Source: Escherichia phage HeidiAbel_Bas97
Length of the DNA: 41,040 bases
Sequence record: PQ850606.1
Strand: one strand, 5' to 3'
The notes below the pieces were generated by a model. That model had not been told where the DNA came from. It did not search any database and was given only the letters and a program-made list of their open reading frames with translations. Shown here piece by piece: positions 3,080 to 38,832 of this stretch (positions are counted from its first letter, which is position 1; every line of letters begins with the position of its first letter). Position numbers and translations under genes: made by a program.

Positions 3080-4635
3080 TGAAACTGTGGCCATTTACCA
3101 GAAATAAGCCTGCCGAACAGGCACAACAGCCGCGCACGCGGCGTTTACCGCTTAACCGCCTGGCTTCCCGCATGTTTACGGGTGCCAGTGTTGACCGGTT
3201 GGGCACCGCGTGGGGCACGCAGCCGCTGACGGCTGACGAGGTAATCAACAAAAATCAACGCATCCTGGTGGCCCGTTCCCGCGAACAGGCCGCCAATAAC
3301 GACTATGCCAAAAAATTCCTGCGCCTGTGCCGCAACAATATTGTTGGGCCAAAAGGCGTTCTGTTGCAGGCCAAAAGCACTGACAACACCGGAAAACTGG
3401 ACACCCTGGCCAACGAAGCCATTGAAACTGCCTTCGATAAGTGGGGGCACAAGTCAAACTGCGACGTGACCGGGAAGTTATCCTGGCGCGCCATCCAGGC
3501 TGCGTGCATCAACAGCGCGGCCAAAGATGGTGAATTCTTCGTGCGCCTGGTGTTCGGTGCCGATGCAGGGCCGTGGGGCTTTGCGCTGCAACTGCTGGAC
3601 CCGCAACGCTGCCCTGTAGACATGGTTGAAGATCGTCTGAATAACGGAAATTTCATTCGCCAGGGCATCGAGTTTAACCGCTACGGGCGGCCTGTTGCGT
3701 ACTATTTCAGCACGGTTGATGAATCCGATGATAATTACCGTTGGTCCGGGCGTGATTTCGTGCGCATTCCCGCTGATGAAATCCTTCACGGCTTCCTGGA
3801 TGACATGGTGGGGCAGAAACGCGGCCTGCCGTGGATGGCCACCAGCCTGTTTCGTATGCGCCACCTGGGTGGCATGGAAGAAGCCGCGCTGGTCAACGCG
3901 CGAGCCGGTGCCAACAAAATGGGTTTCATCGAATGGGATGAAAATTCCGCTGGTCCTGAGTTTGAAGATGATGACGAACTGATCATTGACAGTGAACCGG
4001 GTGAATTCCAGGTGCTGCCACAGGGCGCACGCGTCAAAGACTGGTCGCCACAGTACCCCAACGGCGAATTTGCCGTGTTCACCAAACAAATGCTGCGCGG
4101 CATGGCATCGGGTATGGGCGTTCCGTATAATGACCTTGCCAGCGACCTGGAAGGCGTCAATTTCAGTTCAATCCGCCAGGGAACGCTAGACAGCCGCGAA
4201 AACTGGAAAGAATTGCAGGAATGGTTGATTGAAAACCTGCATCAACCCGTTTTTGAAGCATGGTTGCCGCGTGCCCTGCTTGCTGGTCGCATCACCGTTA
4301 AAGGCCGCAGCCTGAAACCGGAACGCATCGACCGCTACAGCGATATTGAATGGCAGCCACGCCGTTGGGCCTGGATTGACCCGTCATCTGACGTGGCAGC
4401 CGCTGAACGGTCCAAAAACAACATGCTGCAATCGCCTGGCCGCATCATCCGTGAAGGTGGCAGCGACCCTGACACCGTTTGGAAGGAAACCGCCAGCGAC
4501 GTGGCGCGCATGATTGAGGCGTACACGCAGCACGGCATCAGCCGCGAAATGGCGGAAAAACTGGTCATGCAAAGCATGGGCATGGACAAACAACTGTTAA
4601 TGGGGCAGCAAAATGCAGAAAAACCCGCTGAATAG
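3079..4635 (+). CDS. Portal protein (lambda gpB-like)
   Basis: Recalled similarity to lambda gpB; ATG at 3079 overlaps the upstream stop; the track ORF starts 42 nt further upstream in the same frame. Confidence 0.85.
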   Translation: MKLWPFTRNKPAEQAQQPRTRRLPLNRLASRMFTGASVDRLGTAWGTQPLTADEVINKNQRILVARSREQAANNDYAKKFLRLCRNNIVGPKGVLLQAKSTDNTGKLDTLANEAIETAFDKWGHKSNCDVTGKLSWRAIQAACINSAAKDGEFFVRLVFGADAGPWGFALQLLDPQRCPVDMVEDRLNNGNFIRQGIEFNRYGRPVAYYFSTVDESDDNYRWSGRDFVRIPADEILHGFLDDMVGQKRGLPWMATSLFRMRHLGGMEEAALVNARAGANKMGFIEWDENSAGPEFEDDDELIIDSEPGEFQVLPQGARVKDWSPQYPNGEFAVFTKQMLRGMASGMGVPYNDLASDLEGVNFSSIRQGTLDSRENWKELQEWLIENLHQPVFEAWLPRALLAGRITVKGRSLKPERIDRYSDIEWQPRRWAWIDPSSDVAAAERSKNNMLQSPGRIIREGGSDPDTVWKETASDVARMIEAYTQHGISREMAEKLVMQSMGMDKQLLMGQQNAEKPAE

Positions 4636-22818: not shown

Positions 22819-22895
22819 TGGCGACCCCTACAGGAATCGAACCTGTAACCTACAGCTTAGAAGGCTGTCGCTCTATCCGGTTGAGCTAAGGGGCC
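22819..22895 (-). tRNA. tRNA-Arg (anticodon UCU), 77 nt with encoded CCA
   Basis: Reverse complement folds by hand into a full cloverleaf: 7-bp acceptor stem with one G-U pair, D arm, anticodon loop CUUCUAA, T-loop TTCGATT, discriminator G and CCA. Confidence 0.85.
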
Positions 22896-31267: not shown

Positions 31268-31356
31268 ATTGCAGTTGATTAATAGGTTTAAACATTTGGA
31301 GTATTTACCTAAGTAAAGGTATTATTATTTCAACGACAACAAACAGGGGCAGCAAA

Positions 31357-34378: not shown

Positions 34379-36688
34379 ATGAGTGCACAACAAAACTATA
34401 AGGATTTGACCGAACAGGAAATTGCAGAAGCACTTTCCTACATTGACGCCGGTTGCGACCGTGAAGCATGGGTGCGCATGGCGATGGCGGTCAAATCAGA
34501 ATTAGGCGACGGCGGTTTCACCGTCTGGAATGACTGGTCACGCCAGTCTGACAAGTACAACAGCAAAGACGCGCGCGACACCTGGAAATCAGTGAAGCGT
34601 CACGGCGGCATTGGCATTGGCACCCTGATTGGTGAGGCGCAGCAGTTCGGCTTTTCCCTGAACGATGAAGAACGCACCCCGCTGTCAGCGGAAGAAATCG
34701 AAGCACGCAAGCGCAAGCGCGAAGCCGAAGAAAAGGCAGAGCAGCAGCGCCGTGCCGAACGTATGGCGCAGGCAGCCGAACAGGCGCGCAACATATGGGA
34801 ATCAGCCACCGAACTGGAAGGCGATGAACACCCCTATTTGCAGCGCAAGAAGGTGCAGGCGTTTGGCCTTCGCGTTGGGCGGTTCTGGACAGAAAACCGC
34901 AGCATTGATGGCGCGCTGCTGGTTCCTGTGCGTAACATTGACGGGCAGATCACCAGTTTGCAGGCCATCTTCCCGAACGAAAACCCACAGCTAGGGCGTG
35001 ACCGTGATTATTTGCCTGGCGGCCAGAAGCGTGGATGCTTCCACGTCATCGGCGGCAAGCCGACTGGCGCAAACCCGGTCATTGTCATCTGTGAAGGCTA
35101 TTCAACCGGCGCGTCAATCCACCAGGCAACAGGCTACTGCGTTGTAGTGGCGTTTGATGCCGGTAACGTGCCGACCGTGGCCAAGCTGATGCGCCAGCAG
35201 TTCGGACGCGCAACAATTGTTGTGGCAGCCGATAACGACCAGTGGCACGAAGATGGCAAGCAAAATGATGGCGTTCACTACGCGCGCCAGGCCGCAACCA
35301 CTTGCGGCGGCCTGCTGGTGGTTCCGAAGTTCGCCGCACTGAGCGACAAGCCGACCGACTTCAACGACCTGCACAACCTGCAAGGGCTGGCAGAAGTTAA
35401 GCGCCAGATTAACGCCGCGATACCTGAACCGGCAAATGACAACTTTCTGCCGCTGGATGCCACGGTCAACCCGTTCATGTACCCGCACATGAGCCACCAG
35501 CAAAAGCCATTAAGCACCTGGGAAAACCTGGAATGGCTGCTGGACCAGTACGGCATCACGGCGCGTTATAACGAAATCAGCAAAGATGTGGTGGTGACCA
35601 TTCCAGGGCGTGACTATGGCGTTGACGCTTCGGCCAACTGTTCCCTGGCGGAAGTTTCCAGCCTGTGTGCCCGCAACGGTATGCCAAAAGGTGACGTGGG
35701 CGATTACATCAAGCTGATTGGCGTGGCCAACCGTTACAACCCGGCTGCTGAATTCATCACGTCACGGCCCTGGGATGGCGTCAGCCGCATTTATGACCTG
35801 GTTGACACCCTGGCCACACCTGCAGGCTTTGACCGTGGCCTGGTGCTGATGATGGTGCGCCGCTGGCTGATTTCTGCCGTGGCTGCCGTTATGAAGCCAA
35901 CCGGGTTCTGGTCCAAAGGCGTGCTGGTGTTACAGGGTGACCAGTCATTGGGGAAAACGTCCTGGTTCAAAGCACTGCTGCCGCCGACCATGCGCGACCT
36001 GGTGAAAGATGGCGCGACCATCGACCCTAGCAACAAAGACAGCGTGACCACCGCGATTGGCCACTGGATGGTTGAACTAGGCGAGCTTGACGCGACATTC
36101 CGCAAATCTGACATTGCCAGGCTGAAATCCTTCATCAGTTCTGACGTTGATATGCTGCGCCGCCCTTATGACCGGCTTGAATCGAAGTACCAGCGCCGCA
36201 CGGTGTTTTTTGCGTCAGTGAACCCCAAACACTTCCTGGCGGATGACACCGGGAACGTTCGCTGGTGGACCATTCCGGTGACCGGTGTGAACTATGCCCA
36301 CGACATCGACACGCAACAGCTATGGGCCGAAGTGGCGCAACTGTACCGTGACGGCGAACGCTGGTGGCTGGACCGTGACGAAGAAGCCATGCTGGAAGGC
36401 GTCAACAAGGAACACGAATCCATTGACCCGGTAGAGGAAATGATACTGGCGCGCTTTGAGTGGGGCAGCGAACGCATCAGCGCCTACCGAGAACATACCG
36501 CCAGCCAGGTGTTGCAGGAAATTGGCTTTGATAAGCCGAACAAGTCACAGGCCACGCATTGCAGCAACGTGCTGCGCAAGCTGACCGGGCAGGAACCGCG
36601 CAAGACGAAAAACGGGCGGTTCTTCAACCTGCCGCCAAAGGTGTTGCAGCCAGACTACCGGCGACCAGATGACGACAAGCCATTTTGA
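34379..36688 (+). CDS. DNA primase/helicase (P4 alpha-like: PriCT-2, TOPRIM, P-loop NTPase)
   Basis: N-terminal PriCT-2-like region, TOPRIM-like core (VIVICEGYSTGASI...VVAADNDQ) and P-loop GDQSLGKTS in a VirE/D5-like C-terminal half. Confidence 0.85.
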   Translation: MSAQQNYKDLTEQEIAEALSYIDAGCDREAWVRMAMAVKSELGDGGFTVWNDWSRQSDKYNSKDARDTWKSVKRHGGIGIGTLIGEAQQFGFSLNDEERTPLSAEEIEARKRKREAEEKAEQQRRAERMAQAAEQARNIWESATELEGDEHPYLQRKKVQAFGLRVGRFWTENRSIDGALLVPVRNIDGQITSLQAIFPNENPQLGRDRDYLPGGQKRGCFHVIGGKPTGANPVIVICEGYSTGASIHQATGYCVVVAFDAGNVPTVAKLMRQQFGRATIVVAADNDQWHEDGKQNDGVHYARQAATTCGGLLVVPKFAALSDKPTDFNDLHNLQGLAEVKRQINAAIPEPANDNFLPLDATVNPFMYPHMSHQQKPLSTWENLEWLLDQYGITARYNEISKDVVVTIPGRDYGVDASANCSLAEVSSLCARNGMPKGDVGDYIKLIGVANRYNPAAEFITSRPWDGVSRIYDLVDTLATPAGFDRGLVLMMVRRWLISAVAAVMKPTGFWSKGVLVLQGDQSLGKTSWFKALLPPTMRDLVKDGATIDPSNKDSVTTAIGHWMVELGELDATFRKSDIARLKSFISSDVDMLRRPYDRLESKYQRRTVFFASVNPKHFLADDTGNVRWWTIPVTGVNYAHDIDTQQLWAEVAQLYRDGERWWLDRDEEAMLEGVNKEHESIDPVEEMILARFEWGSERISAYREHTASQVLQEIGFDKPNKSQATHCSNVLRKLTGQEPRKTKNGRFFNLPPKVLQPDYRRPDDDKPF

Positions 36689-36694
36689 TTAATA

Positions 36695-36720
36695 ACCCGC
36701 TTCGGCGGGTTTTGTTTTTA
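36695..36720 (+). terminator. Rho-independent terminator after the primase
   Basis: ACCCGC-TTCG-GCGGGT then TTTTGTTTTTATT. Confidence 0.6.
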
Positions 36721-36979
36721 TTGATAGGTAGAAACGATTATGTATTTACCAAAGTAAAGGTGTAGTATTTATCACATAGGGCGGCGGCAGGATGCAGCCG
36801 GAGAGGAGCAACGCAGGGGCTTGATCGTAGTGTCAGGATTCCCAACCGTGAGGCCAGAACGCACACACTACCGGAAACGGAGAACGCTAGTGCGGTTACT
36901 GAACCGAGGCTACCGACGAAGCACGACGCCCGCCAATTAACCAACCTACCCCACCAGCGTGGGGCCACTGGTGAACACC

Positions 36980-37057
36980 ATGAACAACATCATTTTCATC
37001 TACGCCATCGGCGCACTGCTGGTGGCATATGCACTGATTGAATCGGGGGTTTTATGA
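36980..37057 (+). CDS. Putative leader / small hydrophobic peptide (25 aa)
   Basis: MNNIIFIYAIGALLVAYALIESGVL; stop overlaps the next ATG (ATGA). Confidence 0.25.
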   Translation: MNNIIFIYAIGALLVAYALIESGVL

Positions 37058-38106
37058 AACAGGTAACGATTGACACCGTGCGCGAGCGCATAGCGGAACT
37101 GGAAATGGTCAACAGTCACGGCGAACTGTCATTGCGCGGCGAATTCGAACTGGCGTGTTTGCGGATGCTGGCCGATTCAATGGGCGGCGTTGACGATGAC
37201 GTGCGCAACGTGGTGGTCCTGCTGGAAAACAACGAATGGGCAGAGCATTGCACCAACACGGTTTTAGGTTCACGCCTGGAAAGCGAAATAACCCGCCTGG
37301 TTGGCCACGTGCAGCCAGCGCCGGTAGCAAGCGATGCGGAACCATCATTTGACGCCATGATGCGCGCGCTTGATGCGTTCTATGCTGATGACGATGTGCC
37401 GGAACTTGCCATGCTGGCGGCGTTCAGAATCCTGCTGGCTGATGTGCGTAACCAGCCAGCGCCGGTTGTGATCGATGACGTTATGGAAGAAATCAACAGG
37501 TGGGCTACTGACCGCAGTTTGGTTGGTCGTAATAACTACACGCAGCAGCAAAACGCACTTATTGATGTTTACATTGGCCTGACTGAGCCGCAAGTGCCCG
37601 TGGCTGTGCCTGACGAAGTCACCAGCGAGCAGGCTTATCAAATTGGTGACTACTATGGCGACCCAATAGATGTATTCGCACGTGGGGCAAACTGGATGCG
37701 ATCAAAGATTATCGGCAACATGCTCCTGGCTGACATGGACCGCGCAGCAACGCGCAAGGTGCAGGAACTGACAACATGCAACACAGCGCAGCAGTTTGAA
37801 GCGTTGACCACCAACGGCAAGAGTGAAGACCTGTTGAATGCGGAACGGATAGCCAGGGAAGCAAAGGCGTTGTCTGACCGGCTGAACGACACCAGCGCGG
37901 TTCATCCTCGCGTCAGTGGTTGGTCAAAGCGTCAGCAGAAAGTGATTTCATATTCACTGTGGCGTTTCATGCACTCCGCTTATGAAATGGCAAAAGATGC
38001 AGCGCAGAAAGGCACAAAGGAAGATTTTGACAGGTTCATGCAGGATGCAAAATGCGCGGAGGAAATCAGGGAGGAATTCACCAGCGCGGGAAGCGGCAAG
38101 CCATGA
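37054..38106 (+). CDS. Hypothetical acidic protein
   Basis: 350-aa ORF with no recognisable motif. Confidence 0.55.
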   Translation: MKQVTIDTVRERIAELEMVNSHGELSLRGEFELACLRMLADSMGGVDDDVRNVVVLLENNEWAEHCTNTVLGSRLESEITRLVGHVQPAPVASDAEPSFDAMMRALDAFYADDDVPELAMLAAFRILLADVRNQPAPVVIDDVMEEINRWATDRSLVGRNNYTQQQNALIDVYIGLTEPQVPVAVPDEVTSEQAYQIGDYYGDPIDVFARGANWMRSKIIGNMLLADMDRAATRKVQELTTCNTAQQFEALTTNGKSEDLLNAERIAREAKALSDRLNDTSAVHPRVSGWSKRQQKVISYSLWRFMHSAYEMAKDAAQKGTKEDFDRFMQDAKCAEEIREEFTSAGSGKP

Positions 38107-38426
38107 GCCTGGCAACCGATATTCTGTGGCGCGCTTTTGTTACGCAGGCGAAACAGAAGCAGAAGCCAAAACCAGCACCAGTGGTGGCAAAACCAAAACC
38201 GGAAGTCACTGCAATCAGCAACCGCAACCTGCACCTTGCGCGCGTCCCTGGATGTCAGCGATTGGCGTGGGGTTGGCAGGTGACGTGCGGTGATGGCAAG
38301 AAGCAACACACCCTGGGAACATTCAAAACAATGCCACGCGCACGCATCGCATGGCGACTTTGGCACCTGTGGAAGCGCAGAGGATTTGCCGACATCCCCA
38401 CCGGTCCAACCACGCTTGAACACTAA
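38103..38426 (+). CDS. Putative AP2-like DNA-binding protein
   Basis: ATGA-coupled; segment WQVTCGDGKKQHTLGTFKTMPRARIAWRLW resembles the AP2 beta-sheet DNA-binding motif. Confidence 0.4.
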   Translation: MSLATDILWRAFVTQAKQKQKPKPAPVVAKPKPEVTAISNRNLHLARVPGCQRLAWGWQVTCGDGKKQHTLGTFKTMPRARIAWRLWHLWKRRGFADIPTGPTTLEH

Positions 38427-38449
38427 CCGCCTTCGGGCGGTTTTTTATT
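38427..38449 (+). terminator. Rho-independent terminator
   Basis: CCGCC-TTCG-GGCGG then TTTTTTATT directly after the stop. Confidence 0.65.
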
Positions 38450-38451
38450 GC

Positions 38452-38773
38452 GGTGACTAAAGTTGGTCACCTTGTCACCTAGTTGGTCACCTAGTTGGTC
38501 ACCACTTAAACCCCTGATATGACTATATAAATGACTAAAGGTGACTAAGGGTGACAAGGATTTATAAAGTTTAGATTGGGGGAAATACAAGGTGATAGGT
38601 ACAGCCTATCAATAGTGCGCACAGAGGGCAGAATGACATTAATATAGGAAATTGTTGTCACCTTAGTCACCCAAACCCAAAAACGCGCATTTTGTCTTTA
38701 TAAATCAAGATGATTGACGGGTGACAAGCGGGTGACCAACTCTTTGCCACCTTGTCACCCTTTTCTGGTCACC
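38452..38773. repeat. Iteron-like array: at least 14 copies of GGTGAC/GTCACC (including TTGGTCACC x4 and TTGTCACC x3) with AT-rich spacers
   Basis: Counted directly, both orientations, between the terminator at 38427 and the Mor-like gene. Confidence 0.7.
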
Positions 38774-38832
38774 GTTCATCTTTTCGGCTACAATCCCCAC
38801 ATTGACTTTTATTTATAATTATTGGGGGTTAC

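Follow-up and report, generated by a model that had tools for sequence, protein, structure and literature searches.

Does the noncoding gap behind the primase gene of Escherichia phage HeidiAbel_Bas97 encode a structured RNA, and, if so, what might such an RNA do? The window analyzed here (sequence record PQ850606.1; the whole stretch of 41,040 nucleotides (nt), numbered from its first letter) is a Jilinvirus-like (Iiscvirinae) phage genome, whose kin include Salmonella phage PT1, Escherichia phage Alux-21, Enterobacter phage Arya, and ECO1230-10. From the intrinsic terminator of its primase operon to an ATG at 36980, the window holds no credible open reading frame (ORF). The original prediction, made from the letters of the window, had read this gap and its flank as a GC-rich, structured segment with long-range complementarity, two mutually exclusive hairpins, and a 25-codon leader ORF whose stop overlaps the start of a gene for a 350-amino-acid (aa) protein, and had proposed a structured RNA or a leader-peptide attenuation device. 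We find that the gap almost certainly contains a copy of a genuine structured RNA family of ~160 nt, at 36776–36931 on the + strand, that this RNA is an optional module exchanged among phages of Enterobacterales, and that leader-peptide attenuation is to be rejected.

A structured RNA family revealed by covariation

Relatives of the segment were collected as 37 distinct sequences, which amount to about eight related classes, and aligned (alignment A1). A fold was derived by comparison, the covariance model R1 was built, and the sequences were realigned to R1 (alignment A3). In A3, which is by construction fitted to the model, 91.7% of the pair cells form standard pairs, compared to 25–46% when the 3' partners are slid by 1–3 columns, and 22 of the 36 pairs have changed on both sides. 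The covariation score is 0.46, as opposed to 0.15 after shuffling, and the observed values were reached by none of 500 shuffles. Compensatory changes are present in every one of the seven helices (P1–P7), and the fold is conserved in many phages; covariation across related phages, the check that had been proposed for the structured-RNA claim, thus bears it out. Searched with R1, the window yields a single copy (36774–36939; 173 bits, E 2e-41).

Independent changes are nonetheless numerous, the stems having diverged while their pairing was kept. At least seven sequences are found for the P6 stem (CGCAC/GUGCG, CGCUGG/CCAGUG, CAUUGG/CCAAUG, CUAUC/GAUAG, CCAGGU/ACCUGG, CAUGAU/AUCAUG, and CAUAAC/GUUAUG), four for P7 (CCG/CGG, GCC/GGC, CCC/GGG, and CUC/GAG), four for P2, and at least four for P1. 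The long-range complementarity noticed originally (near 36779 and 36929) corresponds to the closing helix P1, which covaries across phages; its single G.A mismatch in the window is replaced by perfect pairing in PT1, and other variants read GACGGGC/GCCCGUC, GUCGAC/GUCGAC, and AGGCAG/CUGCCU. The P2 stem likewise covaries (UGGCA/UGCUA, UGC/GCA, AGCUAUA/UAUAGCU) around a loop that is always (A)GGA(U/C), and pair 38:144 of P4 is A-U in 21 sequences and G-C in the remaining 16. Helix P5 is modelled well solely in the non-Dhillonvirus classes. The junction strands are conserved in every copy, as are ACACU and AGAACGC in the internal loops of the P5-P6-P7 arm (36852–36905), and 36 of the 37 distinct copies match the 18-mer CAGGAUUCCCAACCGUGA perfectly, the exception being metagenome contig L150, which has CAGAAUUCCC. 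Overall, P1 closes the structure, the P2 hairpin displays its GGA loop, and the long-range helix P4 encloses both the P3 hairpin and the P5-P6-P7 arm (Table 1).

When RNAalifold was run independently on A3, it recovered P1, P2, P6, and P7 and proposed a different centre. This alternative centre is broken by three rare variants (KA2-1, Lumpael, and the metagenome contig; L025, L139, and L150), all of which are exactly compensated in P3, and P3 and P4 were retained for this reason. Invariant or dominant G.U pairs at model positions 50:71, 52:67, and 56:63 indicate that the fold exists solely on the + strand transcript. By contrast with the covariation, the folding energy of the core in single sequences is unremarkable (z = +0.42), and the minimum-free-energy folds are inconsistent between classes; energies were not used as evidence, so the case is carried by covariation.

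The same alignment bears on whether the element acts as RNA at all. A protein-coding region, or an element that acts as DNA (an origin or protein-binding site, for instance), might have been suggested by the location beside replication genes in Jilinvirus-like phages and by a minus-strand coding sequence (CDS) annotated over the RNA in PT1. In the window, ORFs overlap the RNA on both strands (36821–36940, +; 36738–36968, −), the latter being a 76-aa antisense ORF whose PT1 counterpart is annotated as a hypothetical protein (QIG65642.1). Neither reading frame is conserved: the classes differ by 1-nt indels, and the + strand frame meets a stop after 12 codons in the Dhillonvirus copies. Coding potential was therefore rejected on both strands, the PT1 CDS is considered spurious, and the original statement that the gap lacks a convincing ORF stands. 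Several Dhillonvirus records also place a "hypothetical protein" over the RNA, and these CDSs are probably annotation artefacts. Given in addition the compensatory helix substitutions, the G.U pairs that work on one strand only, and the presence of the same sequence in phages with unrelated replication modules, the probability that the element is something other than RNA is minute. The description of the segment as GC-rich holds for the RNA core (61.5% G+C, against 55.3% for the window) and fails for the whole span originally delimited (54.1%).

Table 1. Positions of the RNA, its helices and conserved strands, and the flanking features in the window.
Feature	Position	Strand	Remarks
Primase/helicase ORF, 769 aa	34379-36688	+	Toprim, PriCT-2, and VapE-like domains
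Intrinsic terminator of primase operon, AACCCGCTTCGGCGGGTT plus T-run	36694-36719 (stem 36694-36711)	+	Directly 5' of the promoter of the RNA
Predicted promoter region, Jilinvirus-type motif TTGATAGGTAGAAACG ... ATTTACCAAAGTAAAG	36721-36768	+	-10-like TAGTAT at 36763-36768; -10 placement in every class
Structured RNA core, seven helices	36776-36931	+	R1 hit, covariation
P1, 5' arm GGGCGGCG, 3' arm CGACGCCC	36779-36786 / 36924-36931	+	Both-side changes in 5 of 5 modelled pairs
P2 hairpin, GCA-GGA-UGC	36787-36795	+	3 of 3 pairs compensatory, 100% paired
Strand GGAGA	within 36800-36804	+	Invariant columns
P4, 5' arm GGAGC, 3' arm GCU-A-CC	36805-36809 / 36909-36914	+	Bulged A
Junction AACGCA	36810-36815	+	Invariant columns
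P3 hairpin, GGGG-CUUGAU-[CGUAGU]-GUCAGG-AU-UCCC	36816-36843	+	Three independent rare variants (L025, L139, L150) compensated
Junction AACCGUGA	36844-36851	+	Invariant; part of the 18-mer CAGGAUUCCCAACCGUGA
P5	36852-36857 / 36899-36905	+	Encloses P6 and P7; 64.9% paired
P6	36860-36864 / 36890-36894	+	4 pairs changed on both sides
P7 hairpin, CCG-GAAA-CGG	36871-36880	+	GAAA loop; 3 pairs changed on both sides
Strand CGACGAAG	within 36909-36931	+	Invariant; between the 3' arms of P4 and P1
C/A-rich tail AAUUAACCAACC	36935-36946	+	
Overlapping hairpins CCCCAC-CAGC-GTGGGG and CACCAG-N10-CTGGTG	36949-36964 and 36952-36973	+	Specific to this lineage
Hydrophobic mini-ORF, 25 codons, MNNIIFIYAIGALLVAYALIESGVL	36980-37057	+	ATGA overlap with the start of the 350-aa ORF at 37054
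350-aa ORF	37054-38106	+	"EaA protein" in the PT1 annotation; PHROG matches only of unknown function
Next intrinsic terminator on the RNA-led transcript, AACCGCCTTCGGGCGGTT plus T-run	38425-38450 (hairpin 38425-38442)	+	~1.5 kb 3' of the RNA

Distribution and horizontal exchange of the RNA

When 50,697 phage records were searched with the segment by blastn, 171–178 of them matched. The primase and the downstream gene match close relatives only, whereas the core (~36776–36931) matches unrelated groups at ~80–95% identity. Its carriers include Dhillonvirus (HK578 and many phages of the BASEL collection), the Drexlerviridae subfamily Tempevirinae (swan01, Motto), Jilinvirus, Sortsnevirus (IME279, sortkaff, Lumpael), Serratia phage MQ-4, Klebsiella phage KA2-1, BUCT618, and others, and nearly all of these records annotate nothing, or no more than a doubtful hypothetical protein, under the match. 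IMG/VR contigs and about 15 metagenome contigs (39–51 kb) were picked up in addition by pattern scans. A scan of a species-representative genome collection gave seven hits, only one of which was real, namely a phage-sized contig binned into a metagenome-assembled genome. Neither megablast nor sensitive blastn found a match in 5,426 complete E. coli genomes, prophages included, and sensitive blastn found none in 72,556 plasmids. A loose IMG/VR pattern (GCAGGGGC-N-GGATTCCC) was discarded after it had returned 120 mostly random loci, since none of the 100 that were searched with the covariance model are homologues. The RNA is thus an element of virulent-type phage genomes, the bacterial chromosomes and plasmids that were searched having yielded none; the recorded hosts of its carriers, or those of their relatives, are exclusively Enterobacterales.

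Comparison of close relatives shows that the RNA comes and goes independently of its surroundings. ECO1230-10 has the same terminator and promoter as the window and lacks the RNA, its promoter running straight into a ribosome-binding site (RBS). In the window, PT1, Alux-21, and Arya, the RNA follows the primase gene; in KA2-1, whose whole genome holds one copy, and in MQ-4, it occupies a post-helicase site. The window copy is 94–95% identical to those of unrelated BUCT618-type phages and 84% identical to that of Arya, which belongs to the same genus. Presence or absence behind the same promoter, together with the use of a different promoter in KA2-1, marks the RNA as an optional, single-copy module that is horizontally exchanged among virulent-type Enterobacterales phages.

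Promoter-proximal placement

P1 is preceded in all classes by a −10 hexamer, at a fixed distance of 9–11 nt. Transcription of the window copy would thus start near A36776, and P1 would begin within a few bases of this predicted start. Many classes also have a consensus −35 element (TTGACA or TTGACT), as in TTGACT-17-TAATAT, an annotated promoter in the HK578 record. The Jilinvirus-type promoter motif (TTGATAGGTAnAAACG ... ATTTACCnAAGTAAAG ... TAnTAT) has a poor −35 element and is common to PT1, Arya, ECO1230-10, KA2-1, and MQ-4; it is a candidate middle promoter, possibly dependent on a phage factor. Besides the copy at 36721–36768, the window carries a second copy after the helicase gene (31279–31330), where the RNA is missing, and in different phages the RNA sits behind one or the other copy of the motif. 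In five sequences of Drexlerviridae, Sortsnevirus, and Lumpael type (L002, L004, L139, L150, and L153), a palindromic ATAGCACGAATTGCTAAA overlies the −35 region of the RNA promoter and might serve as the operator of a regulator from phage or host.

Downstream of P1, a variable A/C-rich spacer is followed by an RBS and a start codon 20–60 nt away, always on the same strand, and no terminator was found between the RNA and this RBS and start codon in the contexts examined. The RNA precedes the first gene of a same-strand array, and these first genes are unrelated to each other; an all-vs-all comparison of ORFs within ±5 kb of 14 contexts revealed no shared protein family except for the pseudo-ORFs on the RNA itself. 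It follows that the RNA is tied to the promoter and the operon start and not to a particular gene. In HK578, the RNA heads an array of 19 genes (~12 kb) whose head carries the only annotated promoters and the two best same-strand sigma-70-like sites (10 of 12 positions), with weaker internal candidates in the scan. A strong terminator is located 484 nt downstream of the HK578 RNA in a gap whose 49 nt leave no room for a promoter, and a further one is found beyond it. In most other contexts, the window among them (38425), canonical terminators follow at a distance of 0.4–2.5 kb.

In 7 of 13 contexts (including L001, L003, L004, L024, L027, and L139), a box U(U/C)AACCA(A/G)C follows P1 despite differing downstream genes, and an ACC(A/U) stands often, although not in all classes, directly after P1. 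The box bears only a loose likeness to part of rrn boxA and to the T7 epsilon enhancer. A boxA-like reading of UUAACCA was dismissed as evidence, as IME279 has CUUUAAC in common with rrn boxA and other classes match poorly. A tRNA-like reading, with P1 followed by ACCA, was also abandoned because ACC(A/U) is not universal and no T-arm precedes the 3' arm; ARAGORN, for its part, detected only a tRNA-Arg in the window and no tRNA or tmRNA at the RNA.

The downstream hairpins and mini-ORF

The attenuation proposal holds that translation of the 25-codon ORF selects between the two hairpins and thereby controls the 350-aa gene. In its favor, the two hairpins would exclude each other, both can be drawn, and the second covers the likely Shine-Dalgarno sequence (GGUGA, 36970–36974) of the mini-ORF, which is present as described and overlaps the downstream start codon. 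The hairpins themselves, however, are neither above chance nor conserved. Folding of 36936–36995 gives a z-score of −1.67, with 16 of 200 shuffles folding as well, which is not significant; in PT1, an A.C mismatch of the first hairpin goes uncompensated, and Alux-21 is devoid of the partner arm of the second. Nor was a terminator-like site detected on the + strand between 36712 and 38424, the hairpins at 36949–36973 having no U-tract. The mini-ORF begins 3' of both hairpins, its peptide contains no run of regulatory codons, and the RNA occurs in at least eight other genomic contexts without a reading frame of this type. Mimicry of a CRISPR repeat by the hairpin at 36949–36964 was considered separately and dropped, as the resemblance to the type I-E repeat looked weak.

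The conservation of the mini-ORF is equally telling. Its consensus is NNIIFIYAI.ALL.A.ALIE.GVL, it is always joined to the EaA-like gene via GGGGGUUUUAUGA, and it is kept in four phages, namely PT1, Arya, Alux-21, in which an ORF of ~150 aa separates it from the RNA, and ECO1230-10, in which RNA and hairpins are absent. The junction to the downstream gene is the same in KA2-1, although the small hydrophobic ORF there is a different one. Because the mini-ORF stays with the downstream gene where the RNA is missing, it is better regarded as a translational-coupling feature of that gene than as part of the RNA, and leader-peptide attenuation, which we now consider extremely improbable, is rejected. 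Reshuffling at this site is modular: the extra ORF of Alux-21 (L172, ~3345–3700), which is rich in Ser, Gly, and Asp, shares its C-terminal sequence with an ORF of ECO1230-10 that ends just before the mini-ORF.

Possible functions of the RNA

Our preferred reading, which we hold tentatively, is that the RNA may be a cis-acting leader that needs no phage protein as partner and acts on the very transcript or elongation complex that it heads. Placement at the 5' end, constant orientation, the lack of a terminator of its own, independence of particular genes, and the lack of a protein partner all point to a role in cis on transcript or polymerase, and restriction to Enterobacterales is what would be expected of an element fitted to a host machine. 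The RNA would be made as the 5' leader of whatever same-strand gene array follows, and the nascent transcript would fold once P1 closes, rendering downstream expression robust. The likeliest route would be that host RNA polymerase is made resistant to intrinsic or Rho-dependent terminators inside the operon; alternatively, the 5' end of the mRNA might be protected from decay. Several points nonetheless weigh against such a leader. The start site, the 3' end, and any effect on termination are all inferred, and the RNA shares neither size, fold, nor sequence with put, the antiterminator RNA of phage HK022. It is dispensable at the same promoter in ECO1230-10. Each genome has a single copy, which related phages carry behind different promoters; an element that particular operons require in cis should be present at every one of them. 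The RNA-led unit of the window is only ~1.5 kb long, terminator-bounded, and moron-like. Short gaps that hold a terminator can hold a promoter too (the distance from terminator to RNA in the window is 88 nt), so that internal terminators are weak evidence outside HK578. Finally, the conservation of loops and junctions is stronger than simple protection of a 5' end needs.

Single-copy occurrence, dispensability, varied promoters, invariant loops, and virulent-type restriction would fit a trans-acting RNA gene almost as well. Such a stable RNA would borrow a strong promoter, be processed off the mRNA in the A/C-rich tail, and bind or titrate a host factor or defence component, a candidate target being a GGA-binding protein such as CsrA, reached via the P2 loop and the GGAGAGGAG strand. 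The pattern of horizontal exchange suits this possibility, as do the joining of the 5' and 3' ends by P1, as in many stable RNAs, the invariance of loops and junctions while the stems drift, and a confinement to virulent phages, with absence from the E. coli, plasmid, and species-representative collections, that is shared by many counter-defence genes. Yet in at least eight contexts, no copy has its own terminator or stands apart from a downstream same-strand gene; the dissimilarity to any E. coli chromosomal or plasmid RNA means that it is not a sequence mimic of a host RNA, and a sponge would be expected to hold more than two or three GGA motifs, which moreover leave the conserved three-way junction unexplained. 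We consider a role in trans rather unlikely, if still a serious alternative. Less probable again is a new self-cleaving ribozyme or processing element, which would detach the leader and give the mRNA a 5'-OH, acting as an insulator or stabiliser. Self-cleaving ribozymes are common in phage genomes, and the multi-helix junction with invariant junction nucleotides and freely covarying stems, located, irrespective of the gene, always in the 5' untranslated region (UTR) and directly followed by an unstructured A/C-rich spacer and an RBS, would be in keeping with one; on the other hand, the RNA matches no ribozyme family in Rfam 15, ~160 nt is large for a self-cleaver, and no cleavage site can be inferred from the sequence. 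A riboswitch, in which the junction would bind a small molecule and P1 formation would control the downstream operon, has a similarly slim chance of being correct. The 5' UTR position, the closing P1, and the conserved junction core are of the aptamer type, and RNAalifold lets GGGGC (47–51) pair with the 3' arm of P4, making an alternative pairing conceivable. That pairing, though, is without compensatory support and is contradicted by the three rare variants; there is neither a terminator nor a conserved expression platform, the sequence and distance of spacer and RBS differ between contexts, conserved pairing with the aptamer being absent, the first downstream genes of the 14 contexts are unrelated, and the element is optional at the same promoter. 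All explanations other than a cis-acting leader, a trans-acting RNA, a ribozyme, or a riboswitch together account for a small share of the probability at most.

Neighboring features

The primase terminator is also present in PT1, Alux-21, and ECO1230-10. Its hairpin (AACCCGCTTCGGCGGGTT, 36694–36711) is nearly identical to the one at 38425–38442 (AACCGCCTTCGGGCGGTT), and the two bracket the unit RNA-orf25-orf350-orf124, giving it the look of a moron-like cassette. The 350-aa ORF has no Pfam match. Beyond the second terminator, a noncoding gap of ~390 nt (38443–38832) separates it from a gene for a 144-aa "late transcriptional activator" (phrog_836, helix-turn-helix). Within 38452–38773, GGTGAC/GTCACC is found in 13 copies, in both orientations, and the genome holds 69 copies compared to 20.6 expected. 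This repeat is kept in PT1, Alux-21, and KA2-1, and the same gap of ECO1230-10 has a different repeat (GGGACTAT/GGTCCC); the array looks like a set of iterons or operators covarying with a cognate DNA-binding protein. The tRNA-Arg gene (anticodon TCT; ARAGORN, 22819–22895, −) lies between the structural genes and a minus-strand gene block.

Novelty and significance

Full-text literature searches for 15–16-mer strings of the RNA and for keywords found no description of it, although the RNA may be among the 10,006 unnamed candidate structured RNAs of viruses reported by Fremin et al. (2023; PMC10690425). We rate it as a new family of phage promoter-proximal structured leader RNAs with a real chance of mechanistic novelty. 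On a bolder reading, which we consider conceivable and on the whole unlikely, it would represent a novel class of phage RNAs with complex folds, which subvert a conserved host machine unaided by a protein partner and are traded among virulent coliphages as plug-ins directly behind any strong promoter; this could take the form of an RNA-only device, unrelated to put, that makes RNA polymerase resistant to termination, of a new ribozyme, or of a decoy for a host factor or defence system. Should RNA polymerase prove to be its target, just one other kind of protein-independent antiterminator RNA would be known in phages, and synthetic operons would gain a compact, portable tool; were it a decoy or a ribozyme, an RNA player would be added to the phage-host conflict. 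Either way, a well-folded RNA of ~160 nt has remained unannotated in more than 170 sequenced phages, including HK578 and several Dhillonviruses of the BASEL collection, even though E. coli phages are much studied, and it deserves an Rfam entry and a correction of the overlapping CDS annotations. It is also amenable to standard E. coli reporters and phage deletions.

Comparison with known systems

At gathering score, Rfam 15 recognizes only the tRNA-Arg (22822–22895) in the whole window. In 36500–37300 at E ≤ 10, there are weak hits on the primase terminator and an 18-nt hit at 36948–36965, with none over 36776–36931. The sole Trp_leader match lies on the minus strand over the primase terminator and scores 14.8 bits, as against a gathering score of 41. 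Like the trp, his, and pheA leader-peptide attenuators, the locus has a short ORF and overlapping hairpins upstream of a gene; unlike them, it has no terminator and no regulatory codons, its ORF does not lie over the hairpins, and that ORF is conserved independently of the RNA. An rsmX match of only 19.5 bits likewise covers the primase terminator and not the RNA. The GGA in the P2 loop, followed by GGAGAGGAG, presumably lends the RNA a likeness to GGA sponges of the CsrB/RsmZ type, from which it differs in having only two or three GGA motifs and a large conserved architecture other than GGA.

Parallels are also offered by orphan riboswitch-like leader RNAs (Weinberg/Breaker lists; PMC10690425), which were also found by covariation and have in common with this RNA a 5' UTR location, a multi-stem junction, and a conserved core, while the present RNA lacks a coherent set of downstream genes and an expression platform. 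As with phage moron cassettes, the RNA is optional, exchanged, terminator-flanked in several contexts, and equipped with its own promoter, except that what moves is an RNA, placed between the first gene and a promoter already there, as opposed to a protein gene with its own signals.

The put RNA of HK022 is 73 nt long, forms two stem-loops in a V shape, and binds the zinc-binding domain of the beta' subunit (PMC9378689). The RNA described here is set apart from it by a length of ~160 nt, seven helices, the closing helix P1, and occurrence once per genome, where put has two stems and is found twice; by its absence from the E. coli chromosomes searched, prophages included, put being an element of temperate lambdoid phages; and by the search of the complete HK022 genome with R1, in which the best hit (5.6 bits, E 3.8) falls inside a tail gene and argues against homology. 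By analogy, the RNA may at most be a functional analogue of put: like putL and putR, it is phage-encoded and promoter-proximal, it stands at the head of a terminator-containing multi-gene operon in an enterobacterial host, and no phage protein is conserved near it, and the put-type arrangement, promoter-proximal, in cis, and upstream of terminators in a long operon, occurs in HK578.

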